Shown here one piece after another: positions 29,417-48,265 of a stretch of DNA of 49,245 nt. The stretch is from contig JAQTPP010000004.1 in the NCBI GenBank assembly GCA_028712705.1, positions 1 through 49,245 on the forward strand. Reading direction: 5' to 3'. The notes under the pieces were generated by a model. The model was not told the DNA's origin, did not search any database, and saw only the letters and a program-made list of their open reading frames with translations. Origin of the DNA: Candidatus Daviesbacteria bacterium (GTDB taxonomy: Bacteria > Patescibacteriota > Microgenomatia > Daviesbacterales > UBA10151). How positions within the stretch are numbered: the first letter of the stretch is position 1; each line of letters begins with the position of its first letter. Made by a program: the position numbers and the translations under genes.

Positions 29417-29437
29417 TGTGGATTAGATTGTGGATAA
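29417..29437. promoter_or_regulatory. DnaA boxes upstream of dnaA
   Basis: TGTGGATTA (29417-29425) and a perfect TGTGGATAA (29429-29437, the complement of TTATCCACA). Confidence 0.7.
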
Positions 29438-33583: not shown

Positions 33584-35824
33584 CTACCGCACACACATTC
33601 TGGTTTCCTGGATTGGTTCAACCCATCTGCCGTCTACAGATAGCCCGATGTGCAGATGGCCTATACCCGCAAAAACAGTTCCCACCTGCTCCCCAGACTT
33701 TAAGGTTTTAGCCGAGTTGATTTGCTGGTTAAGATGAGTAAGATCTAAAACTAATCTTCGTCCTTTATATTCAGCCTGATAATCAATTCTGTAGCCCCAA
33801 CTACCCTCTCCGATCGGGATAGGCGCATCTTCAATTCTAGTCCATTCAACAGACTCATTGCCGTTTATATAGGGTAATGTCACTAAGTTGCTAGATCCTT
33901 TTACATCAATGGCATGATACAGGGCTTCGCTATATCTGGTCCCGTCGCAAACATAATAGAAAGGGTTGCATTTTGTTTCATACCCCACACCACCGTGTCC
34001 GCAGTTATTTACAGGACTAGCTGCAGTGCCGCAGCTAATTGTGACATTGTTGCCCAACGGACAACTGAGAGAAAAGCCGATAGAACCGGGAGGTAACGGG
34101 GCGGTACCAGGCATAGCTTGGCAATTCTCAAAATCCTGTTTGGCTTCAAGACCGTAATTATACGGTCCGTATTGGCAAGTGCCATAATATCCGCAAACTG
34201 CTTGATTTACCTCATCACCTGTAGTAGGAGGTACGCCACCGTTTTTACTAATTATTACCCCTGCTCCCAAATAAACACTAGTTTTAACATCGCAAAAGTC
34301 TTGTAGACTAAGGGAGTCAGCAGTTTTTCCAATAAATCTAGCTCCTCTTTCCACTCCGTCTGCGCTGTAAGCTCCCACACTTTCGAATGAAGGTATTTTA
34401 CCGGAGGAAGCGACTATATCATGAATCCTTTTTGGCGGTTGGACTTGCATTAAACCTAGCGCGCCTGTCGAGGATGCGCCAATAGCTGTTAACCCGAAAT
34501 ACTTGCAACCTGTAGCAGTGGTAATATTGTTGCTGAAAGCGCTATGGTTATCATCAGCATTTGCGACAAACTCGGCAGATTCATGCATAGCCAGAGAGGC
34601 TAGAACTGATGCTGGGACACCGGTTTTATCAGCTGCTTCTGTAATATAAGAAATTAGGGTAGAGCTTCGGATTAGATTGGATACTCCGGATCTAGTGAAC
34701 TTACAACTACTGATATCCCCACCGCCTGATGGTAATGATGCAGCTTTAAGGGATGAGGTGTTTTCTGTGGAGCCTCCGAGTGCAACCATGAAAAATATCA
34801 GGAAGAAAACTCCACCAAAGATTAAAAGCGCTCTTTTTGAACCTAGATTCTTTGGGGAAAAAGATTTGGAAGCGGCAGAGAACCTGGATCTGGTGTTTGA
34901 TAAGTTGCTTAAAAAATCTCCGCCATGGTTTATGAATCCAAGACCCGCCCTTCCTCCGAGGTTTGCCGCACCGTTAAGTCCCTGCCCGGTAATTCCCCTG
35001 CCCATTCCTCCAATAATCCCTTTAAGGCCGTCAAACATCCTGCCCAAATTTGTTTTAAGGAAAGGATTTGCCCTGGCAACAAAATTTTGTACATTCTTGA
35101 AGCCGGAAGACATAGAAGATTTAAAAGAGGAAAAATTAAATCTTTGGGAAGCAGGTGAAGGTGTTGTAGATGCAGGCGGGATATTATGCTTTCTTATAAT
35201 GTTGCCGCTGCTGTCTGTTAGAACTATTTGAGATGGCGGTTTTTCTACAACTGCTCCGCTTCGGGTTGCAGTAACTAGTTTTGAAGGTTCCGGAGCTTCT
35301 TTAATTGTTCCACTACTGGTCGCAGTGACTAATTTTGATGGTTCTGGTCCTTGGGCGGGAACAGATGGAGGTGGGGTGTAAACTGCGCGCCGTGGCATTG
35401 AAAAACGAGGGATGGAGGTGCCGGACATAGATGGTAGTCCTGCAGGCATAACAGTTCCTGCTGGCTGCGTTCCCTGACCGGTTAGAGGTACTGCTTGTCC
35501 GCTTGGTTGTCCGCTAACTACTTCTGTTGTAACAGGTTTCTCCGCTAACGATCTTTCCAGTTCGATCCGCTCCCCCGCAGTAAACTGAGCAAAGATACGG
35601 TTTGTGGTGTTTCTGGGATCAGACAGATATTTGATTAAATAAGCATCGTCTTTTCCTGTCAGGTCCGGGATTTTTTTGCGGAGTAAATCAAAACATTCAG
35701 TCCTGTCCACGGTTGTCCATTCCCCATTCATTGGGAATCTGGAACGCATACGCTCCGGGTGGAAATTAGTGTTTTTTAGTTCGAAAAAGAATGCTTTGAG
35801 TTTATCGAAATCTGAATAGGCCAT
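33584..35824 (-). CDS. T4SS-associated cell-wall hydrolase: cytoplasmic N-domain, TM, lytic transglycosylase (SLT), M23/LytM peptidase
   Basis: TM helix ALLIFGGVFFLIFFMVALGG. SLT motifs LAMHESAEF and GALGLMQV. M23 motifs HAIDV and GIGHLHIGLSVDGRWV. Tandem PEPSKLVTAT(S/R)SG x2 in the N-domain. Confidence 0.75.
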   Translation of the reverse strand: MAYSDFDKLKAFFFELKNTNFHPERMRSRFPMNGEWTTVDRTECFDLLRKKIPDLTGKDDAYLIKYLSDPRNTTNRIFAQFTAGERIELERSLAEKPVTTEVVSGQPSGQAVPLTGQGTQPAGTVMPAGLPSMSGTSIPRFSMPRRAVYTPPPSVPAQGPEPSKLVTATSSGTIKEAPEPSKLVTATRSGAVVEKPPSQIVLTDSSGNIIRKHNIPPASTTPSPASQRFNFSSFKSSMSSGFKNVQNFVARANPFLKTNLGRMFDGLKGIIGGMGRGITGQGLNGAANLGGRAGLGFINHGGDFLSNLSNTRSRFSAASKSFSPKNLGSKRALLIFGGVFFLIFFMVALGGSTENTSSLKAASLPSGGGDISSCKFTRSGVSNLIRSSTLISYITEAADKTGVPASVLASLAMHESAEFVANADDNHSAFSNNITTATGCKYFGLTAIGASSTGALGLMQVQPPKRIHDIVASSGKIPSFESVGAYSADGVERGARFIGKTADSLSLQDFCDVKTSVYLGAGVIISKNGGVPPTTGDEVNQAVCGYYGTCQYGPYNYGLEAKQDFENCQAMPGTAPLPPGSIGFSLSCPLGNNVTISCGTAASPVNNCGHGGVGYETKCNPFYYVCDGTRYSEALYHAIDVKGSSNLVTLPYINGNESVEWTRIEDAPIPIGEGSWGYRIDYQAEYKGRRLVLDLTHLNQQINSAKTLKSGEQVGTVFAGIGHLHIGLSVDGRWVEPIQETRMCVR

Positions 35825-35839
35825 AAGATTAAGGTACCA

Positions 35840-37597
35840 CTAAATTTTCTGTCTTGCCAGTATTTCAGCAGGATTTGAAGTAATCAATTGATGTTCCTCC
35901 GGAGAAGCTACCACCCTCATTGCCACATGGGTATTGCCGGCAAAAAATATCCCTTCACCGATTCCTTCTGACATCAAAAGTCTCTGTTCTCCTTCTGACA
36001 GGTTAAAAACATGGGCCAAAAGGTCGATTGAAGCAGGAGCTTGTTTCAGGAGAATTTGGATTGATGAATTGGAAATAATTTCTTTACCCCGCTCGTTGCC
36101 TAAGAAATCCTCTACGTCTTGCGTAATGGTGGTTAAGCCTAAATAATATTTCCTGGCACGTTTGGCCATGTCTACCAAAAAATCCGCCGAATCCTGATTC
36201 CGCATTAAATACCATGCTTCATCAACAATTAAAAGTCTTTTTTTGAGCTTGCCTCTGATTTTGGTCCATATGTAATCTAAGATCATATGAATAGACAGCG
36301 GTCTTAACTGGTCCGGCAAATCGCGGACCGAAAATACTGTAAACGAGTTGGAAATATCAACATTGGATTGGGTGGAGAAAATACCGGCGAGCGATCCTTT
36401 AATAAATCGCTCCAGCCTGGCTGCGAGCTCCATGGCTACAGCTTCTTCCATCCCGATCAAAACTTTGTATAAGTCTTCCATTAAAGGAGGAGTCAGGTTT
36501 TGGGTTTTAGGGTCATCTGTGATTCCTTTGAGCTGGTATGTTTGTTTTAAGGCTCTATCCAGTATGGCGGCTTCTTGGGCATTTAGCGTTCCCAAAACCA
36601 ATTTTAAAAAACCGGTTAAAGACAAAATTTTACGGCCCAGTTCATTTTCGCCCGGAGTTACTTCGGCTGACATATCAAACGGATTGATTTTTACCGGAGA
36701 CGAAGGGGAGAAATTAATATATTCTCCACCAACAGCTTGGGCCAAAATTTTGTATTCCTGCTCCGGGTCAATGACAATTATTTCTGTCCCAAACATTAAA
36801 GATCTGAGGGCTTCAAGTTTAACTAAATACGATTTGCCGGCTCCGCTTTTGGCGAAAATAACCGAGTTTGCATTTTCTAAACTGAATCTGTCAAACAAAA
36901 TCAGAGAACCGTTATGCTCGTTAATGCCGTACATGATTCCCTCGTTGGCAGTCAGTTCAGACGAGGCAAACGGGAAAGTTGTAGCTAGCGACGTGGTATC
37001 CATGTTATGAGCGAGATTTAGAAGATCTTTCCCTTGCGGCAAGGTGGATTTGAAGCCGTCCTCCATTTGCAGTGTTACCTGTTTGGCGGTTATAGAAAGG
37101 GAAGCAAGTGTTGATTCAACCAGCTTTGAAGTGCTTTGCAGCTCTTCCAAGCTCTCTGCCGGTACAGTAATATAGAGGGCAAATTGGAAGAATCGTTCAA
37201 CCCCCCTGACAAGCTGGTCTTGTAAGCTCCTTGCATCTTCCAAGGCTACTTCGACCGCAGGATCCACTGCTCTGCCCCGTTCAAGATCGGTCTGGATCGT
37301 GGCTTCCATTTCAGCTACTTTGCGCTTTAGTTCGTCCAGCACCCCTTGTGATTGTGACGGGTAAATAAACATCGAAACAAGGAGCGAATGGTCAAAAGAA
37401 ATTAGCGGTTCAAGCCAGTTAGGCTCAACAAATCTGGGGTAAGCCGATACAAAATAAGTCCGGAAAAAGCGGCTGTCTATCTTCAGATGACTAAACTCAA
37501 CTTCTATTTCGCCCGGAGCAATCACATCCTCAACGGTTAATCGGGGTTGCAGTTGTTCCTGAGTTTTTATTTTTCTAAATAAATTTGGTAGCTTCAT
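35840..37597 (-). CDS. virB4: VirB4/TrbE/CagE-family type IV secretion ATPase
   Basis: Walker A AKSGAGKSYLVK, Walker B LLIVDEAWYL, and an N-terminal YP..V..NWL pattern typical of Gram-positive-type VirB4. Confidence 0.88.
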   Translation of the reverse strand: MKLPNLFRKIKTQEQLQPRLTVEDVIAPGEIEVEFSHLKIDSRFFRTYFVSAYPRFVEPNWLEPLISFDHSLLVSMFIYPSQSQGVLDELKRKVAEMEATIQTDLERGRAVDPAVEVALEDARSLQDQLVRGVERFFQFALYITVPAESLEELQSTSKLVESTLASLSITAKQVTLQMEDGFKSTLPQGKDLLNLAHNMDTTSLATTFPFASSELTANEGIMYGINEHNGSLILFDRFSLENANSVIFAKSGAGKSYLVKLEALRSLMFGTEIIVIDPEQEYKILAQAVGGEYINFSPSSPVKINPFDMSAEVTPGENELGRKILSLTGFLKLVLGTLNAQEAAILDRALKQTYQLKGITDDPKTQNLTPPLMEDLYKVLIGMEEAVAMELAARLERFIKGSLAGIFSTQSNVDISNSFTVFSVRDLPDQLRPLSIHMILDYIWTKIRGKLKKRLLIVDEAWYLMRNQDSADFLVDMAKRARKYYLGLTTITQDVEDFLGNERGKEIISNSSIQILLKQAPASIDLLAHVFNLSEGEQRLLMSEGIGEGIFFAGNTHVAMRVVASPEEHQLITSNPAEILARQKI

Positions 37598-38364
37598 TCT
37601 CCTAACTCCTCCACTACAAAGGGATGTGTTTTTGTGCCTTGAGTGGTTATTGGTCCTGTCACAGGCGGGATTGATGGCGTTGGTTGTGGCGCTGCGGGAT
37701 TAAAAGTTGGTTGTGCGGCCGAAGGCCCTGAGCGAGCGTCAGCGAGTCGAATGGGTTGTTTTAATTTAACTGCTAATTCTTGCGGATTGACGATTTGTCC
37801 CGGCGGTTTTTCTTCAACTTGACCATTATAGATATAATAAAAAACTTCAATCAATTTTTGTTTGGTCATCTGCATTGCTTTCAGATTGACTCTGCCTAGT
37901 TGTCTGATAATTTGATCCCGTCTTGGTATGAGTATTGTTTTAATTTTTCCCTCCAAACTTTCTTTGGATGGAGTTAGCCCCAGCTCTAGCGCGAAAAGCG
38001 GAATGACAATATAAAACCTTTTATCCAATACCTCATTTTCTTTGATTGTAGTTTGGATAAATTGTCTATACCCCGTAATCATTTGTGAAAGCAGCGGGTT
38101 GTTTTGGGCTTTTTTGGCGTCATCCAATATTTTCAGATAAGAGCTGATGTTGAGCCTTTCCGAATGAACAACAATTTGGATGCTGAATGATAAGGAATTA
38201 AGCATTTGGGCGAATGCGGAAATGATAGCCACTTGTTCCCTGTCTGAAAGCAAGCCAAAATTAACAGCGCTGACTTGCAGAACAAGCGCCCCGCCCCCGT
38301 CTTTCAGTAAAAGAATATCATCCTGAATATCTGAAATAGATAAATGCTCCTGTGTTGTATTCAT
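37594..38364 (-). CDS. T4SS accessory protein resembling a free-standing VirB4 N-terminal domain
   Basis: I.DI.DDILLLKDGG.ALVLQVS.VNF.LLS..EQ..II..F...LNSL.F..QIVV mirrors the VirB4 N-domain pattern. Pro/Thr-rich C-terminus. 4-nt overlaps on both sides. Confidence 0.4.
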   Translation of the reverse strand: MNTTQEHLSISDIQDDILLLKDGGGALVLQVSAVNFGLLSDREQVAIISAFAQMLNSLSFSIQIVVHSERLNISSYLKILDDAKKAQNNPLLSQMITGYRQFIQTTIKENEVLDKRFYIVIPLFALELGLTPSKESLEGKIKTILIPRRDQIIRQLGRVNLKAMQMTKQKLIEVFYYIYNGQVEEKPPGQIVNPQELAVKLKQPIRLADARSGPSAAQPTFNPAAPQPTPSIPPVTGPITTQGTKTHPFVVEELGE

Positions 38365-39380
38365 GATTTTGCTGTAATCACTAAAGGCGGTAAAACTTCT
38401 CCGGTTAATTCAATCTGTAATACATCAAAAGTGTAATTGTCTTTTTCAAGCTCCAAAGTATAAGTTTTATTAGGCAGCGGCGTTGAACCGGTAAATTGAC
38501 CGAGTTTATTTGTTTTTAGAGCTCTGACCGGCAGGCCCTCTTTGTCGTAGATAACTGCCACTACGCCTTCCAAATAATTATTGTTCCTGTCTTTGACAAT
38601 GCCGTTTATGACATTTGGAAATGTGGTTAGCGCAACCTGCGCTTGTTTGGGTTTCACAGGTATTACTACTTTGACTTTTTCCCTGAATACAGGTTCAGAA
38701 ATAGGAACTTGAGGTTGAGCTGTTGGTTCCTGGATAGATTTAATTTGCTGTTTCACTTCGGAAGCTTGATTAACCAGGTTTTTTAAATCCGTTAAGATCT
38801 TGCTGGCTTGTTGGCTATAGTCAACTGGTATAGGCGTGGGTTGCGTTGCTTGTTCCTTAATTTGCGATAAAGTCCGCTCCGACTGGATGATCCTCATTTG
38901 TAGCTGTTGCGCCTCTTGAGCCAGGTCTACTGTTTTTTGCAGCTCCTCCTGTGTTGGTAAAGGCGCAGGGCGCGTAATTTGAGGGGTAGTTACAGCAGAC
39001 GGTTTGGTTTGAGGAACGTTTTGAGCGCCGGCAAGATACATTACCAGACGACTGCTAAACAACGGGTCTTCTTTGTAAGCTTTTCCGTTTTTCGCCCAGG
39101 TTCTTTTGGTAGGTGAATAAACAGCTTTCAAAAATGCTGCTAACCAGTGATCCAGCGCCCGTGATCCAATCGGCACAAAAGCAAAAGCAATACCTAAAAT
39201 GGTCGAAGCAATAACAATCGGCCAGGCTATGATTGGATAATCGTGTGAGAAAAGGACAAAAACCAGATAAGCAAACCCTGCGCCGGCAGCCAGATAGCCG
39301 AATTGCTTTAGAGTCATATCCCCGACCAGCTTGAACTGGAAACTTGTCACATTTTGCGGGATTGGATGCACCTCTTCCAT
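38361..39380 (-). CDS. PrgI/VirB3-like membrane protein with coiled coil and C-terminal carboxypeptidase-regulatory-like beta domain
   Basis: IPQNV.SFQFKLVGDMTLKQFGYLAAGAGFAYLVF plus a second TM helix is the PrgI-family pattern. C-terminal NGIVKD.NNNYLEGVVAVIYDKEG.PVRALKTNKLGQF. Confidence 0.6.
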   Translation of the reverse strand: MEEVHPIPQNVTSFQFKLVGDMTLKQFGYLAAGAGFAYLVFVLFSHDYPIIAWPIVIASTILGIAFAFVPIGSRALDHWLAAFLKAVYSPTKRTWAKNGKAYKEDPLFSSRLVMYLAGAQNVPQTKPSAVTTPQITRPAPLPTQEELQKTVDLAQEAQQLQMRIIQSERTLSQIKEQATQPTPIPVDYSQQASKILTDLKNLVNQASEVKQQIKSIQEPTAQPQVPISEPVFREKVKVVIPVKPKQAQVALTTFPNVINGIVKDRNNNYLEGVVAVIYDKEGLPVRALKTNKLGQFTGSTPLPNKTYTLELEKDNYTFDVLQIELTGEVLPPLVITAKS

Positions 39381-39456
39381 AGATACTATCTATATACATC
39401 GTGAAAAAAATGATGGCAAGGGTCACAAAACAGATCATTATGGGGCAATCCATATT

Positions 39457-39568
39457 AATCTCAAATCTTAGATCTCAAATCGCAAATCTGCATCTTAAAT
39501 CTCAAAGGTTTTAAAATTTTAAGATTTTAAGTTTTAGTTTTGAGTTTTGACATTTGAGTTTTGAGTTG
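39457..39568. repeat. 112-nt heptamer-periodic region: (AATCTCA)n array facing an inverted (TGAGTTT)n array
   Basis: 16 consecutive 7-nt units read directly. The left half is roughly the reverse complement of the right half, giving a long imperfect palindrome centred near 39510. It lies between the divergent T4SS operon and the riboswitch. Confidence 0.8.
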
Positions 39569-39579
39569 TTATTCTAACG

Positions 39580-39737
39580 TTGTGGTATTTCACCCCGCCT
39601 CTGGCGGGAGAAGAAATAAGCGGAGCTTGCGAGCTTCGCTCTTAAAAAGGGAATCAGGTGAGAATCCTGGACTGTGCCGCAACTGTAAGCTACAAGCATG
39701 TAAACTGCTTGTAGTAAAGTCAGGAGACCGACCACAA
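39580..39737 (+). promoter_or_regulatory. Cobalamin (B12) riboswitch aptamer
   Basis: Core AAGGGAATCAGGTGAGAATCCTGGACTGTGCCGCAACTGTAA and B12 box AGTCAGGAGACCGACC. P1 pairs TTGTGGT (39580-86) with ACCACAA (39731-37). Peripheral hairpins: CCCGCC/GGCGGG, AGCGGAGC/GCTTCGCT, CTACAAGCA/TGCTTGTAG. Confidence 0.85.
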
Positions 39738-39793
39738 GCTAGTGACTAGTCGCTAGAGACTAGAGTCTAGTTAAAATCCCGAGCAGGAGCAAT

Positions 39794-40666
39794 ATGTCAG
39801 TAGAAACACTTTCACGTCGAGAACAAGCCGCAGAAGAACTGGCTTCTTCTATTCAGGAAACACATAGAATTCCTGACCCTTATCATTTTGAGATTACACC
39901 GTATGGTGAATTATTTTCTCCTAGTGCACGTTGTCTGGTTAAAGATAAAAGAGTTATTGATAAAACAAGCCCTCTGGGACGATTGGAATATCAAGCTTTG
40001 CTTTCTATAGAGCAATGGGCAGTCAGTCGTAATGAGGGAGTAATTGTCTGGGTTAGCCCTCCCTATCCTGGAGCATATTCTGTCTTAAAAATAATTGTCA
40101 GCGAGATAGAGTATGAGAATGGTCTCAAAAGATTATTTAACCGGGCTATTTTATTTGATTTTGATGAGAATCAGTCTCTGGAATTTACCCGTGGTTTGGC
40201 GCAGTTTAGCCAGAACCAGCCAAATTTTTTCAATCTTGATCAGGTCAGGGCAACCCCGCTGATTTTAAAGACCCATGGCAATTTTTGGATCCATGCCTTA
40301 GAAGAGTTAATTGATGCGCCTGCTGTATGGGAAATGGTCAGAATTGGAGAAGATAGAAGACTGAAAGAAGAGGCTCTTAGACAGGCTACAATGGTCCAAA
40401 AAGAGTTTTTCTCAATTCCAGGGCTATATTCTACAGATGAAGCGCAAATGGCTATTAAGCAAGTACTGGGGCCATACTCGGGTAGCTGCCCCCCTAAGAC
40501 TGCTTTTCAGGTATTTTCAGAGAATTCTTTAGTAGTGGGTGATGGGGTAAATACTAAAGATCCTGATTTTTGTAGGAATTGTCCTGTTTGTGGTGAAGCA
40601 ATAAATTGTATTGTCAGAGCCGGCCAGAGCTGTCCTAGCTGTAGGACAGTTAAAAGATGCGGATAG
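39794..40666 (+). CDS. Uncharacterised soluble protein with a C-terminal Cys-rich (zinc-ribbon-like) cluster, downstream of the B12 riboswitch
   Basis: 290-aa ORF. AGGAG lies 5 nt upstream of the ATG. No TM segment. C-terminal C-x2-C-x2-C-x5-C-x8-C-x2-C-x6-C. No domain recognised. Confidence 0.6.
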   Translation: MSVETLSRREQAAEELASSIQETHRIPDPYHFEITPYGELFSPSARCLVKDKRVIDKTSPLGRLEYQALLSIEQWAVSRNEGVIVWVSPPYPGAYSVLKIIVSEIEYENGLKRLFNRAILFDFDENQSLEFTRGLAQFSQNQPNFFNLDQVRATPLILKTHGNFWIHALEELIDAPAVWEMVRIGEDRRLKEEALRQATMVQKEFFSIPGLYSTDEAQMAIKQVLGPYSGSCPPKTAFQVFSENSLVVGDGVNTKDPDFCRNCPVCGEAINCIVRAGQSCPSCRTVKRCG

Positions 40667-40688
40667 TATTGTAGGTTTTAATTACCTA

Positions 40689-40717
40689 TTGACAAATTTA
40701 GTAATGTTTGGTATAAA
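40689..40717 (+). promoter_or_regulatory. Sigma-70-like promoter of the HTH/PIN pair
   Basis: TTGACA (40689-94), 17 nt ending in TGG, then TATAAA (40712-17). ATG at 40724. Confidence 0.55.
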
Positions 40718-40723
40718 ATAATC

Positions 40724-40987
40724 ATGATTAGTACTAAAGTATATACTCCCGAGCAAGTAGCTAATATTCTACAACTGAGCAAAAATACAATTTATGATTT
40801 AATTCAAAGGGGCGAGATAATAGCTAAAAAGATCGGTAAGGTTTATCGTGTCCCGGCAAGTTCCATCTCCTTTGTTTTCACCGGACTGGATTATGACCTT
40901 TATTTGGCTGAAAAGGAAGATCTGAAACAACTCCCCACCATACAAACAGAGATTAAAAAAATCAGGTCTAAGATTAACAGTAGTTAA
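40724..40987 (+). CDS. Excisionase/MerR-type HTH DNA-binding protein (antitoxin of the following PIN toxin)
   Basis: YTPEQVANILQLSKNTIYDLIQRGEI.AKKIGK.YRV is the excisionase-family HTH pattern. Its stop abuts the PIN gene ATG. Confidence 0.7.
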   Translation: MISTKVYTPEQVANILQLSKNTIYDLIQRGEIIAKKIGKVYRVPASSISFVFTGLDYDLYLAEKEDLKQLPTIQTEIKKIRSKINSS

Positions 40988-41434
40988 ATGTTTAAAAAGG
41001 TATTTATTGACTCAGATGTGGTCATCTCTTCGTTAATTTCTTCATCAGGGGCAGCTAATCTTTTGCTCAGTAGCATAACCAATCTTAAATTATATATTTC
41101 AAATGTATCTCAGAAAGAATTAATAGAAGTAGCTGATAGATTGGGGCTTGATCAGACTGAGCTTAAAAATCTTCTTAAAAGAAGCTTCAAAAAGGTATAC
41201 CTAAAGCAACAGTTAAAAGAAATTAAAGTAAAATATTCAGAATATATTGTTGATCAAGATGATGCCCACATTATAGCGGGAGCAAAAAAAGCTAAAGTGA
41301 ATTATCTAATTTCTTATAACACCAAACATTTTAAGATAGATAAAATAAAAGAGGATTTTAATATAATGGTGATGGCTCCTGCAAACTTTTTGCAATATCT
41401 AAGAAGTATAGATTTAAATAAGAGATTGTCCTGA
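40988..41434 (+). CDS. PIN-domain toxin
   Basis: VFIDSDVVIS (first acidic residues), DDAHIIAGA, and ISYNTKHF match the PIN fold signature. Confidence 0.75.
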   Translation: MFKKVFIDSDVVISSLISSSGAANLLLSSITNLKLYISNVSQKELIEVADRLGLDQTELKNLLKRSFKKVYLKQQLKEIKVKYSEYIVDQDDAHIIAGAKKAKVNYLISYNTKHFKIDKIKEDFNIMVMAPANFLQYLRSIDLNKRLS

Positions 41435-41564: not shown

Positions 41565-41651
41565 TTGACAAAGGAGTTTGGGAAATTCTTTTTGAATGTC
41601 AATATAAATGTCAAGAAACTATTTGACAAATATGCAGACATAGGTTATTAT
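41565..41651 (+). promoter_or_regulatory. Promoter with flanking operator-like repeats for the Phd/VapC pair
   Basis: TTGACA (41623-28), 17 nt, TATTAT (41646-51), ATG at 41661. TGTCAA x2 (41597-602, 41609-14) sit between two TTGACA copies (41565-70, 41623-28). Confidence 0.6.
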
Positions 41652-41660
41652 GGATCTATT

Positions 41661-41933
41661 ATGTTAAACATTATTACAGTAACTGCAAGAGATATACTAA
41701 GAAACTACAAAGGAATTTTTGATACAGTCAAGAAGACCAAACAACCCGCTGTAGTCGTTTCTCAAAAAGAGCCTCAAGTAGCGATAATATCCTTAGATGA
41801 TTTGGAAAGACTCAAGATTTTGAAAAATATTCAATCTACCAAAGCTCTCTTGGATCTGGCTGGAATTATTCCTAAGGGGAGCGGATTACCTGCTGATTTA
41901 TCCGAGAAACACGATGAATATACTTGGGACTAG
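41661..41933 (+). CDS. Phd/YefM-type antitoxin
   Basis: MLNIITVTARDILRNYKGIFDTVKKTKQPAVVVSQKEPQVAIISLDDLERL is a typical Phd/YefM N-domain. The track ORF begins at a TTG (41565) inside the promoter. Confidence 0.75.
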   Translation: MLNIITVTARDILRNYKGIFDTVKKTKQPAVVVSQKEPQVAIISLDDLERLKILKNIQSTKALLDLAGIIPKGSGLPADLSEKHDEYTWD

Positions 41934-42354
41934 CAAACCGCTAATTGTAGTAGGAGATACGGATGGTTTAATTGCTATCCTGCATGAAGAAGATATCCAC
42001 CATAGAAAAGCTGTTGAAACTGTTACCAAGTTGCTTGCTCTCAGCGCCCAGACAGTCTTTCCATTAACAACTATTACAGAAACTATTACCACATTGATAC
42101 GTAAACTTAATAAACCTGATTTGGCTGCCCTGGTTGTAAGACAAATAACGAGCGGAGCATTAACAATTGAAAATACCGACACTGGTATACTGAACGAAGC
42201 CTTAAAAGTATTTGACCCAAAAAGCAGTAAGAAAAAGACAATCTTTGATGCAATGGTTGTAGCATGCGCTAAGAAGTTAGATACCAATGTTATTTTTTCG
42301 GCGGATGACTGGTATACTAAGCTCGGTTTTACTCTGGCAATAAATTTAAAATAA
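41914..42354 (+). CDS. vapC: PIN-domain toxin VapC
   Basis: LIVVGDTDGLIA (first Asp), further acidic positions, and FSADD near the C-terminus. 20-nt overlap with the antitoxin. Confidence 0.8.
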   Translation: MNILGTSKPLIVVGDTDGLIAILHEEDIHHRKAVETVTKLLALSAQTVFPLTTITETITTLIRKLNKPDLAALVVRQITSGALTIENTDTGILNEALKVFDPKSSKKKTIFDAMVVACAKKLDTNVIFSADDWYTKLGFTLAINLK

Positions 42355-42573: not shown

Positions 42574-45500
42574 ATGGCAATAGAAAGAAATATGACAGAG
42601 ACAACAGAAGTAACATCAGAAGCAGGGGGACCAAGGACGTTATATGTAACAGATTATAGCGGGAACGTTAGAGAACGACGCTTGGTAGGTCAACCAGGTT
42701 ATGAGGCCCTCGGACCAATAAGCCGACCTGAGGGAACTGAACGTCCTCGCCCAGTGGAACGTCGTGAAATGCCCCCTTCCCATTTTAAAACAGTTATAGA
42801 TGAAATCAGGAGGTTGGAGTACCAGCCTCCATCCCCAGACAGAGATACCAGATTAGAGAATGCTAGAAATGAAAGAAATAGACTTCTTCAAGAAGCAAAT
42901 GAACGTGGGATATTTGATGCTCCAAAAGGAGAATTATTTGACCTTTATTACGATTCCAGAGTCAAGGTAGACCGGGATGAGAAATTTGGAACCAAAGAAT
43001 ACAGAAGAAGAGTTGGGCCGAATGCGCCGGGAAGGTTAGAACTCTTAAGAGGCTTAGAACAGAGAGCAGGGATAGAATCCTGGGAAGGTAATTGGATTGA
43101 TGAAGATCGGCGTATTCAAGGTTTTTGGCAAGATTCTGATAGAGCAGGTTTATATGCAACATATGGAGGCGCAGCGGATTACTTTTATGAAGAAAGTTTA
43201 AAGATGATTAGGGCGGCAGCGATTAACAGGAATATGTTTCAAAGAGAGGGTTTGGAAGCAGTTGGTAGAAAATATCATTTGATAAGTGACGAGCATTATC
43301 AAAATAATGGGTTAACTACTATGGATTCAGATGGTTATAGTATTTGGAATTATACGTGGGAATCAGATCATGAAAGAACGTATTACCTAAGAAATTTTGA
43401 AGATATTAGAGATGCTGTTGAGCACGAAAGGAGAAAAAAATATTTTATTCCCAATACTGGAGATTATGAATCATGGATTAAACTGGTGGCAGATGATGTG
43501 GAAGAAGTTGAAGAATGTATCCCCTATATTTTATCATTTATTAAATCGAAATTTGGTGTAGGAACGCCTCAAGAGATTAATCAGGAGCTTCAACAAGAAA
43601 CAACCAAAATAAAAAAAGCTCTGGAAAAGTTTGGTTATGATTTAGGCTATGAGCGTGAATTGCCTGAATATCGTGCATTTAGACGCCTTCAGTCAAGACT
43701 TGCCCATGAATTAAAGCTTTTGCAAACATATGAATTTTCCAACCTAGCATATTTAGATTGGCAACCTTATTTGGAATCTGGGGGGGATTTAGCCCGGGGT
43801 TTCCATGATACTGAATATCAGGATAGTATTCCTGATTCCATTCTTTTGGATAGAGAAGGTCTGATGATGCTGGCGCTGCAAGAATTTGAAAGAAATGACG
43901 GAGAATATTGGCGCTATGGTTCGAATAATGCGGATACTCCTAAGTATTTCAAAGAAGGAGATGCCCGTGAGTGGCAGGAAAGAAGGAAAAGTCAAATTAA
44001 AGAAACTTTAGTTAATAAAGAATTACGATCCATGTATGACTTGTTGAATATGGATAGAGATGGTCATTCGCTAGGGGATCCTAACCATCCTGCTTTTCAA
44101 AGACTGAAAGCAAAGTTTGATGAATTAGATAGAAAAGATAGAGAGTTCGATGAAAATGAAAGAAGAGCTGGAAGGTCAGGCAAGCCACTGGTAGATTTTT
44201 ACGGTAAGCCTATGACGCGTTGGGAGGAGTATTGTGAAAAGGCGCTGGCTTGGCAGAAAAATCAAACATTTACTGAAGAAATAACTGTTAAAGACAAAGA
44301 GGGACATGATGTAAAAGTAATCAGAAGAGTTCATCCGATTGGAGATGTTAGAGATTACCGTCAAAGGGTTTTATTCCAGCATCCTCTAGCAAGAGCCTTA
44401 ACAGAAGAAGAATTCAATCTGATGTATAAGGATGTTGATCGAAATGATCCTGCTTTTAAAAGAGGTTTGGCTGAAAAAGAACGCAGAGTTAATTCTATTG
44501 TTGGTTCTTCTGTGGATTCTGTGGGGTCTGCGGAGAGAATGGCAAGGGCATTTCAGGAAGATGCTGCTGCCGGGTTGGCAAGACATATTCTGAGTTTTGC
44601 CCAAATGCGTACCATAGGTCTGATCCCGCCGGGCACACCTACAACATTTACTTTTGATGCAGAAGGATTTCCAATGGATCAGAATGGCCAGCGTATTTCT
44701 CGGGAAATATTGCATTATGCTATAGACCTTGATGGAAAACCAATACGGGAAAATAACCAGCTGGTACCGGAAGCTGTGCCACACAATGTCTTACTTAAAC
44801 ACCTTTGCCAACTGGCTATGAATCATGATTGGCAAGGAGTAGAAAATAATCCTGATAAGCAGAGAAGAATGAGATTTAAATTAACTTATGTATTAAAGAA
44901 AATAGGGATACCTCGCTCTTTACCTCTTTTCTCAAACTGGTACTTAGGGGCGCATGATACCAAAAGACCGAATTGGCTGGCTGATATAGAACGGGAATTA
45001 CCGGGGTTTAAGCAACTCATGATTGATAAAGGTAAGGTTAGGGCGCTTGATTCTGATGATGAATTTGGCGGAGATGAAAAAACTGTATTGACAAGAGTAG
45101 TAGAAGACGAAAGAGAGTTTGTCGAGATGATGGAGGTATATATTAGAGATCAATTCTCTTCTTATTTTAACTATCCTGGTCATGATACTAGAGGTGGAGG
45201 AAATAAAGAGGCTAGGAATTTGTTCTTATTGCCGTATGGCCAGTCCAGAGGTACTGTGGAAATGAATGCTATGATACCCCACATCTGGTTGGGAGAAACA
45301 GATTTTTTGAGCGCTTATGGTTGTTCCAACTGGCGTGAATTTATGGGTCTTTATAAACTTTCTGATGAAGTAAATTATAAAGAAAAAGGTAGCCTTTTCG
45401 AAACCCCCAGGGATGCAGAGTATTGGTTTAGAAGAGTGGGAGCTATTATTGAACAGCAAAGATTGTGGATTAGCGATACTGACAAAAATAAAGCAGTTTT

Positions 45501-46428
45501 AAATAGTGGTTGGGGTTCAGGGTTTTTCCTGTGGCGAGCTCTCAATCGAGTAGCGAGTTTCGTTCATCTTGAAAAAGAACATGAAATTAAAGACTCAGAA
45601 GGGCATAGTATTCGAGTAGATCAATTTACCACGATAACTGATCCTGATGCAGCTTACAAACAATTAGATCAGCAAACTTATGAAAATTATGTGAAGCTTG
45701 CTTTCCAGTTTTTAACGCCATTGATAGCTATTTTTGAGGCCAGACAAAAACTGGAAAATGTTTATGGTAGAAGCCCCGGCACAGCCAAGATTTTAAATAC
45801 TATGACCATGCAAGCACTTTTCAGGTGGATGGACACTAATTATGAGGAATTCAGAGGTAAATACGGTAATGCATTGGATGTAAATTTGCATATGGCGAGA
45901 AAGTTTATCCATACAGCTTTATACGAAACAAGAATGATTTTCTCTGATGATGAAATGGATCAGAGAATGTTAGGTTATACAATACCACAGGCAGAATGGG
46001 AACGAATTCAAACTACAAACTGGAGCAATATGGCGGAAGAAGAAAAAGTAGAATTTAAACCTATTACAAAGAAGATTAGATATAAAGTAAATGATCAGGG
46101 AGAAACACTGGATTACAGTAAAGATGGAAATGGTAGGGTGGTTTTTAATGACAGAGTAGTAGCAGGAGAAAGGGTTCATGGTCTTTTAGATGCATTCCCT
46201 CCTGCCCTCCAAAAGATTATCTTGGAAAGACATAATAATTCTGATAGAAGTTGGATTTTACCGATGGGTATAAATTCAGAATATCCTGAAACGTTAGGAG
46301 TTATCAAACAATTGAGAAAACGCGGCGAACATCCTGGCATGAGTAAAATCTATATGGGTTTACTTGAACAACTACAGTTTAGAAGACAGACTCGTCAAAG
46401 AACACCTGTAACACGAGTTGCAGCATAG
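42574..46428 (+). CDS. Giant hydrophilic orphan protein (1284 aa)
   Basis: Uninterrupted 3.85-kb ORF. Rich in R/E/D/K/W/Y with no TM segment or signal peptide. I could not find any Walker, nuclease, protease, relaxase or repeat motif. Confidence 0.7.
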   Translation: MAIERNMTETTEVTSEAGGPRTLYVTDYSGNVRERRLVGQPGYEALGPISRPEGTERPRPVERREMPPSHFKTVIDEIRRLEYQPPSPDRDTRLENARNERNRLLQEANERGIFDAPKGELFDLYYDSRVKVDRDEKFGTKEYRRRVGPNAPGRLELLRGLEQRAGIESWEGNWIDEDRRIQGFWQDSDRAGLYATYGGAADYFYEESLKMIRAAAINRNMFQREGLEAVGRKYHLISDEHYQNNGLTTMDSDGYSIWNYTWESDHERTYYLRNFEDIRDAVEHERRKKYFIPNTGDYESWIKLVADDVEEVEECIPYILSFIKSKFGVGTPQEINQELQQETTKIKKALEKFGYDLGYERELPEYRAFRRLQSRLAHELKLLQTYEFSNLAYLDWQPYLESGGDLARGFHDTEYQDSIPDSILLDREGLMMLALQEFERNDGEYWRYGSNNADTPKYFKEGDAREWQERRKSQIKETLVNKELRSMYDLLNMDRDGHSLGDPNHPAFQRLKAKFDELDRKDREFDENERRAGRSGKPLVDFYGKPMTRWEEYCEKALAWQKNQTFTEEITVKDKEGHDVKVIRRVHPIGDVRDYRQRVLFQHPLARALTEEEFNLMYKDVDRNDPAFKRGLAEKERRVNSIVGSSVDSVGSAERMARAFQEDAAAGLARHILSFAQMRTIGLIPPGTPTTFTFDAEGFPMDQNGQRISREILHYAIDLDGKPIRENNQLVPEAVPHNVLLKHLCQLAMNHDWQGVENNPDKQRRMRFKLTYVLKKIGIPRSLPLFSNWYLGAHDTKRPNWLADIERELPGFKQLMIDKGKVRALDSDDEFGGDEKTVLTRVVEDEREFVEMMEVYIRDQFSSYFNYPGHDTRGGGNKEARNLFLLPYGQSRGTVEMNAMIPHIWLGETDFLSAYGCSNWREFMGLYKLSDEVNYKEKGSLFETPRDAEYWFRRVGAIIEQQRLWISDTDKNKAVLNSGWGSGFFLWRALNRVASFVHLEKEHEIKDSEGHSIRVDQFTTITDPDAAYKQLDQQTYENYVKLAFQFLTPLIAIFEARQKLENVYGRSPGTAKILNTMTMQALFRWMDTNYEEFRGKYGNALDVNLHMARKFIHTALYETRMIFSDDEMDQRMLGYTIPQAEWERIQTTNWSNMAEEEKVEFKPITKKIRYKVNDQGETLDYSKDGNGRVVFNDRVVAGERVHGLLDAFPPALQKIILERHNNSDRSWILPMGINSEYPETLGVIKQLRKRGEHPGMSKIYMGLLEQLQFRRQTRQRTPVTRVAA

Positions 46429-46435
46429 CGAATAA

Positions 46436-48265
46436 TTATTGCAGTCCTTCTTCGGCAGAAGGTGTTTGAGCTCCTCCTTTTTCCACTGGAAGCTCTTTTT
46501 TATAGTTAAAGAATCCGGCTTTGGTTAATCCAGGATAGTACTTACCCGTTGTTGGATTATAGAGCATCCCACGTTCACCTAAAAGACTTTGTTGGGCAGC
46601 TTGTCCATATCCAACTCCTGCCATATAAGTTCGTCGGGCATAACCTTGACCTTGTCCAAAACCACCCATTATTTCTTGTCCAATCATTTGTCCAGCTTGG
46701 CCTCCTTTACCAATATTTCTTATAATTATATCAGGAATACTGGGTAATGCCATCAATGCTCCAAAAGCCAGCAATATTTTGATAAACCCCAGATCTAATC
46801 CTCCAAATAAAGGGAAAGTAGCGTTACTTGTAATATTAATCCCACTTTGGGCATATACCGGTGAAATAAAATCTCCGTTAGTCTTTTCATTTAAGCTGAT
46901 AACTTTAAATGGACATTTGTTTGGATCTTTGTCAGGGCAATGTGCTGGGGCGTACTCGGATCCTAGGAGAAAGACGACAAAATACATAACTGCTACAACA
47001 GCCGGAAATATTAAAATATTCCCCAGCATATTTAACATCCACCCCGTTGCTATTCCCTGCCTTCCAGGTAAGGAGGCAAAAAGAAACTGGAATGGTGCGC
47101 TGATTGTTAAGAAAATAATAGTCAGCCAAGCCATAATTAAACGCAACAACAGTTTAATCATTTGATAAGTTAGGGCCAGAGCAGCAGCAAAACTAAGAAA
47201 GTAGCCTAAAAGAAACGGAAGACCAATATTTGCTAGTGCTCCGATTCCCAAACTGGCCAATGGCCCGATCAAGAGACCGAAAGGTGGCGGAATGATTCCT
47301 GCAAAAGGCATAACAAATTGAGCAGTCAGCCAAAAGACTACGATTCTAATAGGCGTTAAAGCATCCCCTAATTTACTGAGAATACTATTTGCAACATTTT
47401 CTGCTCTTTCGCGTGTGACAATTCCTGTCAAAGGCGCCATTATGCTTAATATATTATCTCCGGAGAGTTTTTGGGTAAGATCAAGTTGTTCTTTAAATGC
47501 AGTATCATCCAATTTTCCTTGTGCTGCTACAAAATAAAATCCCACCACATTTGTTCCCACAAAAGCCATATCAGAAATCAGTCCTGCCAAGAAATAACTA
47601 AAAGTAATCATGATTAAACCAATTACCAAACCCGGTAAAGCTGTCTGGGCAGTGATGACTGTTTGGGGGTTTATTTTATTCCTAAACATGATCATCAGCC
47701 CAATCACCACAAAAATAATGATCATGATGACATATGAAATATTTCTTGACACTTGCCATAAACTGATAATGGGTTTTAGCACATTGGCTCCGGATCCGGT
47801 TACTCCCTGGGCATGAACCTCTTTAACTATTCCCAGACCTTCTCCCACGCTGGCCAGATAATCAGCAGTTCGGACAGGCGGATTCATATATAAAGCTCCT
47901 ATTACCGAAGTAACAGCGCCTAAAGTTCCTCCGGATAAATTAACTGAAGACAGTACAGGTACGCTTTGAATTACCCCCTGGGTATTTTTGGTAACTTGGT
48001 AAGTTAAACACGGCTGGCCAATTACAGATTGACCCACAGCCAGACAACTGAAAGTATGGAACATATTATTTACCAAAAGATCAGTATAAAGAGGAGAGGT
48101 GGGGGGAATAGTAGGAGGTAAAGAGGTTGTAGGTTGTAGGTTGTAGGTTGTAGTTGCAGAGGCGCTTGAGCTAGGGAGAGAAGATACAGCCAGTGCAGAG
48201 AGAGGTGCTAAAAATAAACTAATAACTAATAACGAACAACTAACAACTAACTTCCAGGCAGTCAT
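46436..48265 (-). CDS. VirB6/TrbL-like polytopic T4SS membrane protein
   Basis: 609 aa. Signal peptide, an extracytoplasmic region, at least 6 TM helices and a Gly/Gln-rich tail. Located next to the pilin genes. The N-terminus is built from heptamer repeats. Confidence 0.6.
   Translation of the reverse strand: MTAWKLVVSCSLLVISLFLAPLSALAVSSLPSSSASATTTYNLQPTTSLPPTIPPTSPLYTDLLVNNMFHTFSCLAVGQSVIGQPCLTYQVTKNTQGVIQSVPVLSSVNLSGGTLGAVTSVIGALYMNPPVRTADYLASVGEGLGIVKEVHAQGVTGSGANVLKPIISLWQVSRNISYVIMIIIFVVIGLMIMFRNKINPQTVITAQTALPGLVIGLIMITFSYFLAGLISDMAFVGTNVVGFYFVAAQGKLDDTAFKEQLDLTQKLSGDNILSIMAPLTGIVTRERAENVANSILSKLGDALTPIRIVVFWLTAQFVMPFAGIIPPPFGLLIGPLASLGIGALANIGLPFLLGYFLSFAAALALTYQMIKLLLRLIMAWLTIIFLTISAPFQFLFASLPGRQGIATGWMLNMLGNILIFPAVVAVMYFVVFLLGSEYAPAHCPDKDPNKCPFKVISLNEKTNGDFISPVYAQSGINITSNATFPLFGGLDLGFIKILLAFGALMALPSIPDIIIRNIGKGGQAGQMIGQEIMGGFGQGQGYARRTYMAGVGYGQAAQQSLLGERGMLYNPTTGKYYPGLTKAGFFNYKKELPVEKGGAQTPSAEEGLQ
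48124..48158. repeat. Heptamer array (AGGTTGT) x4 plus a degenerate unit inside the VirB6-like gene
   Basis: Read directly. Encodes TTTYNLQPTTS on the minus strand. Confidence 0.85.
48214..48252. repeat. Heptamer array (AATAACT/AATAACG/AACAACT) x5 forming the signal-peptide coding region of the VirB6-like gene
   Basis: Read directly. Encodes VVSCSLLVISLFL on the minus strand. Confidence 0.8.

Follow-up and report, generated by a model that had tools for sequence, protein, structure and literature searches.

A cobalamin riboswitch in a Patescibacteria genome and the undescribed cysteine-rich protein family behind it, a candidate for B12 handling

What does a cobalamin riboswitch control when the gene that follows it belongs to no described family? 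The question is raised by a 49,245-nt stretch of DNA from a Candidatus Daviesbacteria bacterium (contig JAQTPP010000004.1 of assembly GCA_028712705.1, forward strand), hereafter the window, in which a cobalamin-type leader stands directly upstream of an open reading frame (ORF) for a soluble protein of 290 aa. Patescibacteria (the candidate phyla radiation, CPR) account for a large share of bacterial diversity and do not make most cofactors, and to our knowledge the ways in which they acquire and use B12 are essentially undescribed. The analysis presented here indicates that the riboswitch and the gene form a conserved unit in these bacteria, and points to the encoded protein as a candidate for B12 handling.

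The identity of the RNA comes first. The Rfam cobalamin model RF00174 matches positions 39585-39750 of the forward strand over its full length (model positions 1-189) with 53.4 bits and an E-value of 1.4e-10, as against a gathering score of 31.5 bits, and it is the sole Rfam family to reach its gathering score in the window. The match ends 43 nt before the start of the ORF, and the leader contains the conserved core GGGAA...GCC(N)GCAACUG and the B12 box, closed by P1. The elements of the aptamer and its putative promoter are as follows:

39580..39750, forward strand: cobalamin riboswitch aptamer (RF00174 match, motif positions and predicted fold)
39580-39586 (TTGTGGT) with 39731-39737 (ACCACAA), forward strand: P1 (motif reading)
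about 39594-39640, forward strand: two aptamer hairpins (predicted fold)
39649-39688, forward strand: aptamer core GGGAA...GCCGCAACUGUAA (motif reading), the core being invariant across the leaders of relatives
39649 and 39676, forward strand: starts of the core motifs GGGAATCAGGTGAGAATCCTGG and GCCGCAACTGTAA, respectively (motif reading)
39675..39679, forward strand: loop L5 (UGCCG), placed from the cmscan alignment, the proposed kissing-loop partner of L13
39689-39715, forward strand: P6 extension, a single hairpin (predicted fold)
39718-39733, forward strand: B12 box AGTCAGGAGACCGACC (motif reading)
39547..39575, forward strand: sigma-70-type promoter-like site by consensus match only (TTGACA at 39547-39552, a 17-nt spacer and an extended -10 element TG-TATTCT ending at 39575)

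A preliminary description of this DNA, made from the letters and their translated ORFs, had called the element a cobalamin riboswitch; the motifs, the B12 box, the P1 arms and the AGGAG that it quoted each lie where it had placed them, and the three peripheral hairpins that it claimed are seen in the predicted fold. In light of these features and the model score, we regard the RNA as almost certainly a cobalamin riboswitch. The promoter-like site matches the consensus at 10 of 12 hexamer positions, besides the TG of the extended -10 element, and the leader RNA would start near 39582, where the 5' arm of P1 lies. A 62-aa ORF at 39561-39749 on the forward strand was discarded as an artefact overlying the aptamer.

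Whether this arrangement is peculiar to the window or a property of the gene family can be decided by comparison with relatives. We gathered 53 loci with clear family members, of which 44 are non-redundant when the window is included; the homologues at these 44 loci range from 24 to 88 % identity and come from Daviesbacteria, Woesebacteria, Blackburnbacteria and others. At 28 of the 44, a match of the cobalamin clan (RF00174 or RF01689) at or above the gathering score lies directly 5' of the gene on the same strand, and at a further 8 the match falls slightly under the gathering score (25.9-36.3 bits). Direct reading recovers the exact core GCCG(C/U)(A/U)AC together with a variant B12 box at 5 loci (L013, L029, L031, L047 and L050), while 2 loci cut by contig ends (L033 and L052) still show the 3' motifs. 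The aptamer has been lost at one locus alone (L025). Thus, homologues of the window gene do repeatedly follow B12 riboswitches, a point that the preliminary description had left to be checked: an aptamer stands 5' of the family gene at 43 of the 44 non-redundant loci, as recognised by Rfam in 36 cases and by direct reading in 7. The linkage persists down to 24-28 % protein identity, and also at loci where the rest of the genomic context shares nothing with the window (L044, L047 and L050). Further, some of the gene calls in the databases have N-terminal extensions that are translated aptamer, with SGDRP corresponding to the B12 box and LCRNCK to the core, and the conserved unit is therefore the riboswitch together with the gene. 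Instances of ORF callers reading through the riboswitch include the extended proteins P0100 and P0115 and positions 4728-5864 of L006.

The exceptional locus L025 displays, at 836-926, a promoter-like TTGACT...TGTTATAC about 70 nt 5' of the AUG and a degenerate UCCCGCAC...GUGCAGGA remnant; it is a natural loss-of-riboswitch variant. Among the leaders that retain the aptamer three flavours can be recognized, namely those with the canonical box AGUCAGGAGACCGACC, as in the window, those with the variant box AGCCAGAAAACUAGCAAC, and an AdoCbl-II-like form (AdoCbl, adenosylcobalamin). The variant box is found in many relatives and is scored poorly or missed by Rfam. The P6 extension ranges from absent to long across the leaders of the family, with the window having one hairpin.

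The manner in which the aptamer would act on the gene is suggested by a small module between it and the start codon, which in the window comprises the following:

39777..39789, forward strand: P13-like mini-hairpin, with UCC at 39777-39779, the loop CGAGCA at 39780-39785 and GGA at 39786-39788
39785-39789, forward strand: Shine-Dalgarno sequence AGGAG, 4 nt 5' of the ATG at 39794, which includes the 3' arm GGA of the mini-hairpin
39738..39772, forward strand: lineage-specific spacer hairpin between P1 and the regulatory hairpin (predicted fold and leader alignment), absent or different in relatives

The same module, a 3-bp stem with a loop of the form CG(N1-2)GCA, stands between aptamer and start codon in 40 of 45 leaders, L002 and L016 being taken separately in this count. 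Its stem occurs as UCC/GGA (30 times), UUC/GAA, UCU/AGA, CUU/AAG, CUC/GAG and CCU/AGG, with one U.G intermediate and one mismatch as exceptions. A formal count of pairs covers only the 23 modules with a six-nt loop, since MAFFT misaligned those with seven-nt loops, and the remainder were collected by regular expression. In these 23 modules 98.6 % of the cells are paired and 3 of 3 pairs have changed on both sides; none of 500 shuffles scored as high, and slid registers gave 36-67 % pairing. Variation within the loop is confined to the 1-2 nt that separate CG from GCA; its invariant letters, C-G...G-C-A, match L5 (UGCCG) throughout by Watson-Crick complementarity. L5 is itself invariant in leaders with the window-type core, the surroundings of L5 being different in three AdoCbl-II-like leaders (L007, L009 and L021) and in L047. 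This complementarity points to a putative kissing-loop contact between L5 and the loop of the mini-hairpin, L13.

The position of the module varies along with its apparent output. Where it abuts the AUG, its 3' arm reads GGA(G); where it lies 36-73 nt 5' of the AUG (L009, L021, L029 and L051), the arm is not Shine-Dalgarno-like and a hairpin with a U-tract comes next, as is also the case after the module in the leaders of L054 and L056. Coupling of the module to an intrinsic terminator in some leaders and to the Shine-Dalgarno sequence in others indicates that the expression platform of a single gene family has shifted between acting on translation and acting on transcription. Terminator-coupled modules (for example AACUCCUCGGAAAAGAGGAGUUUUUUU) were observed at about 4940-5000 in L051, 6735-6772 in L054 and 6685-6722 in L056, and in the leaders of L007, L009 and L021. 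In the window, the spacer hairpin is followed by no T-tract and no terminator-like site was found in 39300-40800, which bears out the earlier claim that no obvious terminator T-tract follows the aptamer.

Cobalamin riboswitches from env8 and Thermoanaerobacter, with structures dating from 2012, reportedly regulate translation via a kissing loop between L5 and L13. Once the ligand is bound in riboswitches of this type, L13 docks onto L5; the contact stabilises an otherwise weak hairpin, and the Shine-Dalgarno sequence is concealed. Given the shared architecture, the window element is probably a translational OFF switch, its OFF direction being taken over by analogy with these systems. Translational control, which the preliminary description had read from the AGGAG before the start codon, is also backed by the conserved and covarying mini-hairpin that holds this AGGAG.

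The product of the regulated gene can be divided into the following parts:

39794..40666, forward strand: family ORF of 290 aa, with its ATG at 39794
39794-40486, forward strand: N-terminal domain, aa 1-231 (AlphaFold model)
40484-40492, forward strand: invariant S231-C232-P233 (family alignment)
about aa 236-254 of the same ORF, forward strand: linker TAFQVFSENSL, conserved in sequence and of low model confidence
40565-40663, forward strand: Cys-rich zinc-ribbon-like tail, aa 258-290 (family alignment and model)

The family to which it belongs has 128 relatives in a 90 %-clustered collection and forms 431 clusters at 50 % identity (E <= 1e-3). All relatives are 260-330 aa long, and all are unnamed or called hypothetical, save for one source that uses 'zinc ribbon domain-containing protein'. 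The named organisms that carry the family are all Patescibacteria of the Microgenomates type (Daviesbacteria, Woesebacteria and Blackburnbacteria), and the closest relative, at 88 % identity, is encoded on a 744-kb contig of a Candidatus Daviesbacteria metagenome-assembled genome (MAG). Five records (L004, L006, L007, L009 and L012) are titled 'uncultured Gammaproteobacteria bacterium ... binchicken'. These five show the same PrgI/TraC/VirB4 synteny as Daviesbacteria MAGs and encode family proteins 45-57 % identical to that of the window, and their titles are probably wrong.

Across members at 24-45 % identity, the residues E22, E65, W86, S88, C232, C263, G277 and C280 are invariant and S18, D28, A68, P89, K99, N116, R152, P155, S231, C266 and C289 nearly so. 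The AlphaFold model reaches a pLDDT of 88.9 and a pTM of 0.78 at full length, and 92.9 and 0.89 for residues 1-231 alone. It displays, in order, a long N-terminal helix, a beta2-alpha-beta3 sheet sub-domain, a helical sub-domain, the S231-C232-P233 motif, the linker and a CPxC...CPxC ribbon ending in Cys289. The C-terminal cysteine cluster reported in the preliminary description is present as C260-x2-C263-x2-C266-x5-C272-x7-C280-x2-C283-x5-C289, so that two of the spacings it gave, x8 and x6, have to be corrected to x7 and x5; a further invariant cysteine, Cys232 of the S-C-P motif, lies outside the cluster. In the ribbon, C263-x2-C266 and C280-x2-C283 are invariant or nearly invariant, the model places two short strands, and Pfam Zn_ribbon matches are weak and below the cut-off. 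No transmembrane-like segment is found in the 290-aa ORF, as had been stated earlier, and the protein is predicted to be cytoplasmic.

Searches with sequence and structure did not connect this protein to any homologue of known function, in agreement with the initial impression that it holds no recognisable domain. Pfam and NCBIfam scans of the window ORF and of 120 members taken singly gave only sub-threshold zinc-ribbon, HypA and Fer4 matches, and PDB sequence searches with the single protein and with a profile gave nothing significant. Foldseek returned no match below E = 1e-3, either for the full-length model against PDB or for the N-terminal domain alone against PDB and BFVD. Neither the window protein nor any of the 120 members reached a Pfam or NCBIfam cut-off for the known B12-regulon families (BtuB/F/C/D, CbrT, BtuM, Cob/Cbi enzymes, MetE, NrdAB/NrdDG and PduO/CobA). 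The nitroreductase-like fold of CblC/CblD is absent from the listed Foldseek PDB matches of both the full-length and the domain-only models, which lowers the case for the family being CblC, not that for its working like CblC. As far as PDB and BFVD show, the modelled N-terminal domain appears to have no solved or predicted structural relative. Residues 28-121 have an order of secondary structure that fits a PAS-like layout, and the corresponding matches (PAS, LOV and heme-PAS; E 0.1-0.6, target-normalised TM-score about 0.4-0.48) are too weak to use. Matches to hydantoinase-B-type proteins (caprolactamase, acetone and acetophenone carboxylase) were set aside as too weak (TMq about 0.3, root-mean-square deviation about 12 A), as was a reading of E22/D28/K99 as a PD-(D/E)xK nuclease site, there being no (D/E)xK motif and no structural match.

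Further evidence on function comes from the genomic neighbourhoods of a subset of relatives. In L051 the gene order is NrdR, NrdJ, a PduO-type adenosyltransferase (TIGR00636), the riboswitch and the family gene, and the NrdJ of this locus is the AdoCbl-dependent ribonucleotide reductase (TIGR02504, 584 bits against a cutoff of 400). L046 has the order riboswitch, DUF4430, DUF6580, second riboswitch and family gene, followed tail-to-tail by a PduO adenosyltransferase, with NrdJ beyond, and in L052 the family gene is likewise tail-to-tail with a PduO adenosyltransferase. Three further loci (L054-L056), found from three adenosyltransferases encoded on long contigs, of which one is from Levybacteria, show NrdR, NrdJ, the adenosyltransferase, an unannotated gene for 371-403 aa, a small gene and DUF8128. 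Over the E65...SPP...R152 core, hhalign relates the 371-403-aa product to the family as a remote homologue (probability 91 %, E 9e-7); its C-terminal ribbon is near-identical to that of the L051 member, and its gene also lies 3' of a cobalamin riboswitch. In L055 a single riboswitch precedes the adenosyltransferase gene, whose stop overlaps the start of the homologue. Glutaredoxin genes occur near the family gene in L013, L014, L039 and L050.

In L046, a separate cobalamin riboswitch (27.6 bits) is observed in the stretch 867-2006 before the genes for DUF4430 and DUF6580, the latter a membrane protein of 189 aa. DUF4430 (PF14478) is a transcobalamin-like SLBB domain. Neither the DUF4430 nor the DUF6580 protein of L046 has a significant PDB sequence match, and their reading as an uptake pair thus draws on the riboswitch 5' of them, on the identity of PF14478 as the transcobalamin-like domain and on the prediction that bacterial transcobalamin-like SLBB proteins scavenge B12 (PMC1796856). 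They constitute a candidate B12 uptake pair in Patescibacteria.

Taken together with the riboswitch, these neighbours allow a working scheme to be proposed. The leader RNA would start at about 39582, and its aptamer, once bound to cobalamin, would dock L5 (UGCCG) on the loop (CG-A-GCA) of the mini-hairpin; as the 3' arm of this hairpin is the Shine-Dalgarno sequence, docking would hide the ribosome-binding site of the 290-aa ORF, and plentiful cobalamin would shut off its expression. When made, the family protein would act on scavenged cobalamin, either before or alongside the PduO-type ATP:cob(I)alamin adenosyltransferase, and this enzyme in turn would supply AdoCbl to the B12-dependent ribonucleotide reductase NrdJ. 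In this scheme, the N-terminal domain would hold the corrinoid, and Cys232 and the C-terminal Cys289, the latter carried on the zinc-ribbon arm by a flexible linker, would serve as a thiol ligand or a redox pair for decyanation, dealkylation, reduction or hand-over. This proposal for the two cysteines derives from analogy with the tail of class II ribonucleotide reductases (RNRs) and with Cys-ligating B12 carriers (BtuM and CblD). This scheme accommodates more of the evidence than its alternatives do; the available evidence leans slightly towards a B12-handling role for the family protein, and we consider the case for the scheme as a whole, that is, a cobalamin-OFF-switched protein handling cobalamin with or before PduO and feeding NrdJ, to be evenly balanced. 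Corrinoid binding and thiol chemistry are putative activities of the protein, and the specific thiol mechanism of Cys232/Cys289 is tentative. Equally speculative is a more elaborate version, in which a new cobalamin-processing protein, with an N-terminal domain and a zinc-ribbon 'swinging arm' bearing a reactive cysteine pair, would form with PduO a minimal B12 salvage route for NrdJ that runs on host corrinoids; the near-constant place of the gene in the repurposed type IV secretion locus would then imply that corrinoid acquisition or the sensing of host supply is coupled to this machine. The suggestion of the preliminary description that the protein is a new member of the B12 regulon is upheld by the conserved riboswitch linkage; of the two roles it named, a chaperone or trafficking factor is favoured by the neighbours (PduO, NrdJ and DUF4430), whereas a substitute enzyme is less favoured.

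Several observations weigh against the proposed role. Adenosyltransferase adjacency is seen in 3 of the 44 clear family loci, besides the 3 loci with the remote homologue, and most loci, including the window, sit in a type IV secretion locus instead, a near-constant place that the scheme leaves unexplained. No homologue of the adenosyltransferase, NrdJ, DUF4430, DUF6580 or VIT1 is present in the 49-kb window, and a search for adenosyltransferases in the window lineage gave few named matches, from Levybacteria and unclassified Patescibacteria. No corrinoid-binding motif or fold was recognised with Pfam, NCBIfam, PDB or Foldseek against PDB and BFVD, and there was no match to CblC/CblD-like, B12-binding Rossmann or transcobalamin folds. 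The family tail and that of the neighbouring NrdJ align with a BLAST E-value of about 0.7, so that their likeness is one of pattern only. Finally, the near-invariance of L5 and L13 leaves their proposed pairing without covariation support of its own.

The secretion locus, which the preliminary description had not noticed around the gene, calls for separate consideration. The window is chromosomal and near the replication origin, with DnaA at 29430-30797 and a class I tRNA synthetase, TsaD and S-adenosylhomocysteine hydrolase nearby, and the riboswitch gene is bracketed within the locus by the following features:

33584..39380, reverse strand: divergent type IV secretion block (Pfam matches), a conserved genomic context of the riboswitch gene
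38361-39380, reverse strand: PrgI/VirB3-like gene (Pfam)
37594-38364, reverse strand: TraC-like gene (Pfam)
35840-37597, reverse strand: VirB4/TraG P-loop ATPase gene (Pfam)
33584-35824, reverse strand: gene for a 746-aa protein in the secretion block
42574-46428, forward strand: gene for a 1284-aa soluble protein with no family match (Pfam and NCBIfam scans)
46436-48265, reverse strand: convergent gene for a 609-aa polytopic membrane protein with no Pfam or NCBIfam match

The region corresponds to a type IV secretion locus known from Patescibacteria, which lies near the origin, lacks a relaxase and is considered to have been repurposed; the 2025 survey that describes it mentions neither riboswitches nor cobalamin (PMC12102498). 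The PrgI-like gene is the divergent neighbour of the family gene in 28 of 36 unique loci, including loci with homologues at 33-36 % identity, and in L048, L049 and L053 the family gene is co-directional with the PrgI-like, TraC-like and VirB4 genes. Six loci (L013, L014, L039, L044, L047 and L050) have no secretion gene in view. DUF8128 is encoded one small gene away from the family gene or its homologue in L046, L051 and L054-L056, and weak TraD/VirD4/TrwB/TraG-D matches suggest that DUF8128 proteins look like type IV coupling proteins. These proteins (about 790 aa; 6359-8731 in L051, 1-501 in L046 and also in L054-L056) are encoded beside the nrdR-nrdJ-pduO-riboswitch cluster, and a tRNA gene and a tyrosine recombinase come next.

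Such a setting invites the alternative that the family protein belongs with the secretion system, whether as accessory factor, as substrate or as regulator, with cobalamin as a read-out of host supply that tunes the secretion or uptake machinery. Its premise is that Patescibacteria are auxotrophs that obtain cobalamin only from their host. In most loci the gene marks the junction of the secretion locus, and three different arrangements, with PrgI divergent, with the secretion genes co-directional, or near DUF8128 and its TrwB_AAD_bind and TraG-D_C (TraD/VirD4-like) matches, all keep secretion genes adjoining; the presumed repurposing of a relaxase-less system, the conserved disordered linker motif and the basic C-terminus of the family would also be in keeping with it. 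However, the six loci without a secretion gene in view retain the unit of riboswitch and gene, the arrangements of the L049 type and the window type differ by inversion of the family gene alone, the riboswitch acts only in cis on the forward-strand gene, and no known secretion-system component resembles the family protein. The adjacency may moreover reflect positional inertia, as the secretion locus is a stable origin-proximal region in Microgenomatia (PMC12102498). On balance, we consider a role in secretion unlikely. Control of the divergent PrgI-like gene by the riboswitch was also rejected, given that the aptamer is on the forward strand and the PrgI-like gene has a promoter-like site of its own at 39464-39437.

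Some other features of the locus deserve mention. Between the PrgI-like gene and the riboswitch, the divergent promoter region at 39457-39561 holds an AT-rich imperfect inverted repeat with 30-nt arms that are 73 % complementary, along with direct AATCTCAAATCT-type repeats and a TTAAAATTTT/AAGATTTTAA palindrome; the region 5' of the riboswitch in the unrelated locus L044 is likewise rich in TCAAAA/TTTTGA. This repeat-rich region could be an operator or a curved-DNA element. Two toxin-antitoxin-like pairs, HTH_17 with PIN (40724-41434) and Phd/YefM with PIN (41565-42354), lie between the riboswitch gene and the 1284-aa gene, and a promoter-like TTGACA-17-TATAAA is seen at 40690-40718. Large soluble proteins of 500-1300 aa with no family match are encoded in the window, L002, L016, L030-L032 and L037, always between the riboswitch gene and the polytopic membrane protein. 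They evolve fast, with copies falling in several BLAST clusters, and are candidate secretion substrates or surface factors. In the distant relatives L030-L032 and L037 the large gene directly follows or overlaps the riboswitch gene, suggesting that the ancestral unit may have been a two-gene operon. The 609-aa protein has a signal-peptide-like N-terminus and about nine transmembrane-like segments, and occupies the same position in 8 loci; VirB6 is scarce in Microgenomatia (PMC12102498), and this protein may be a highly diverged VirB6. At three of the loci without secretion genes, the divergent 5' neighbour is a VIT1-family membrane protein of 173 aa (L013 4009-4530, L047 2528-3049 and L050 2496-3017), which might transport a metal or a corrinoid and be governed by the same control region.

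A second alternative is that the family protein provides a B12-independent bypass when the AdoCbl-dependent NrdJ is starved, for example by salvage of deoxynucleotides or DNA, possibly imported via the secretion system. The logic is familiar from other bacteria, in which B12 riboswitches repress nrdAB, nrdDG or metE, and an OFF switch would fit it. Adjacency to nrdR-nrdJ, glutaredoxin and the secretion locus is compatible with such a bypass, the invariant acidic and basic residues (E22, D28, E65, K99, N116 and R152) would be suitable for the active site of an enzyme, and nucleic-acid binding is common among zinc ribbons. Yet Pfam, NCBIfam and Foldseek brought up no fold or motif typical of nucleases, kinases or nucleotide-binding proteins. 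Further, the co-transcription of the L055 homologue with the adenosyltransferase under one riboswitch argues that the protein works with the B12 pathway rather than replacing it, and L046 pairs the family gene with the riboswitch-controlled DUF4430/DUF6580 candidate uptake pair. A bypass function appears quite unlikely.

The C-terminal ribbon might instead mark a HypA-like protein that chaperones or stores a metal (cobalt, zinc or iron), or one that transfers electrons through an Fe-S cluster. Weak HypA matches cover the C-terminal 50-80 residues of 13 of 120 members (best E 1.8e-4), six members have weak Fer4 matches, and the neighbours include the VIT1-like transporter in L013, L047 and L050 and Rrf2-IscS-IscU in L044. 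All of the HypA and Fer4 matches, however, are below curated cut-offs and span only the CxxC...CxxC ribbon, and only six cysteines are invariant, in a ribbon-plus-two layout. Cobalt delivery for B12 synthesis would also make little sense, as Patescibacteria are not known to make B12, and we view this explanation as improbable. Least probable of all is a nucleic-acid-binding regulator that joins a ligand-binding domain to a zinc ribbon and relays the B12 signal to other genes, for which the weak PAS-like matches of the beta2-alpha-beta3 sub-domain (TM-score about 0.4-0.48, target-normalised) and the C-terminal ribbon could be cited, but these matches all have E > 0.1, no helix-turn-helix or other recognised DNA-binding domain is present, and the invariant S-C-P and terminal cysteines would be left unexplained.

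The RNA of the window is thus a new member of a well-known class, set apart by an unusually minimal and well-defined putative kissing-loop module, and the protein that it regulates belongs to no described family and matched no solved structure. Literature searches returned no paper linking cobalamin riboswitches, or a B12 regulon, with CPR/Patescibacteria, and nothing specific on the family or on its neighbours DUF4430 and DUF6580. A riboswitch is in effect an annotation made by the cell itself, and here it marks an unannotated family of about 430 clusters as one that matters for the B12 economy, and its links to PduO and NrdJ connect this family with the essential synthesis of DNA precursors. 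The steps that lead from uptake to adenosylation in bacterial B12 salvage are poorly defined; if the family turns out to process or traffic corrinoids as a new kind of protein, it would close a gap there and also serve as a marker for B12 dependence in uncultured episymbionts. As the family is small, soluble and confidently modelled, the hypothesis is directly testable in vitro. The leaders in turn offer a compact natural series for the evolution of expression platforms, with three aptamer flavours and one 3-bp module wired to a Shine-Dalgarno sequence or a terminator. The system should be of interest to specialists in riboswitches, B12 and the CPR.

Comparison with known systems places the two halves of the unit very differently. 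The window RNA resembles known cobalamin riboswitches (RF00174; RF01689, AdoCbl-II; clan CL00101) in matching the full RF00174 model, in having P1, the core and the B12 box, and in standing in the 5' leader of the gene it regulates. It departs from them in the single hairpin of its P6 extension, many relatives have the variant box AGCCAGAAAACUAGCAAC, and the regulated gene lies outside the known B12-regulon families. With the L5-L13 switches it shares a Shine-Dalgarno-bearing hairpin whose loop is complementary to L5, although P13 is here reduced to 3 bp with an invariant CG(N)GCA loop.

The protein is comparable to the nickel metallochaperone HypA (PF01155, TIGR00100) in being small and soluble with a zinc-type CxxC...CxxC site, and HypA is its best though weak hidden Markov model match; nevertheless, the scores of 13-15 bits fall far below the cut-offs of 29 and 88, the alignment is confined to the ribbon, and the metal-binding MHE motif at the N-terminus of HypA is lacking. 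The transcobalamin-like SLBB proteins (DUF4430) are, like the family, controlled by B12 riboswitches in organisms that do not make B12, and one of them adjoins the family gene in L046, whereas the family lacks the SLBB domain and is predicted to be cytoplasmic. Cobalamin proteins that place a thiol or cysteine at the cobalt and act before the PduO-type adenosyltransferase include human CblC/MMACHC and CblD/MMADHC and bacterial BtuM. The step proposed for the family would likewise fall between uptake and adenosylation, and the adjacency or operon with PduO and the invariant cysteine are in line with this; there is no similarity in sequence or fold, and the analogy is purely functional. A counterpart of the tail in pattern is found in class II RNRs, in whose C-terminal domain zinc is bound by four cysteines and electrons are passed on by two others, one of them the final residue (PMC5704485, Loderer et al. 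2017). The catalytic body is different, and zinc binding and a redox role are putative for the family protein; both tails are flexible and combine four cysteines in two CxxC knuckles, which could hold zinc, with further conserved cysteines that include a C-terminal one. The spacing C280-x2-C283-x5-C289 of the window protein corresponds to C936-x2-C939-x5-C945 of NrdJd (PMC5704485), and the NrdJ encoded beside the family gene in L051 itself carries such a Cys-rich tail.

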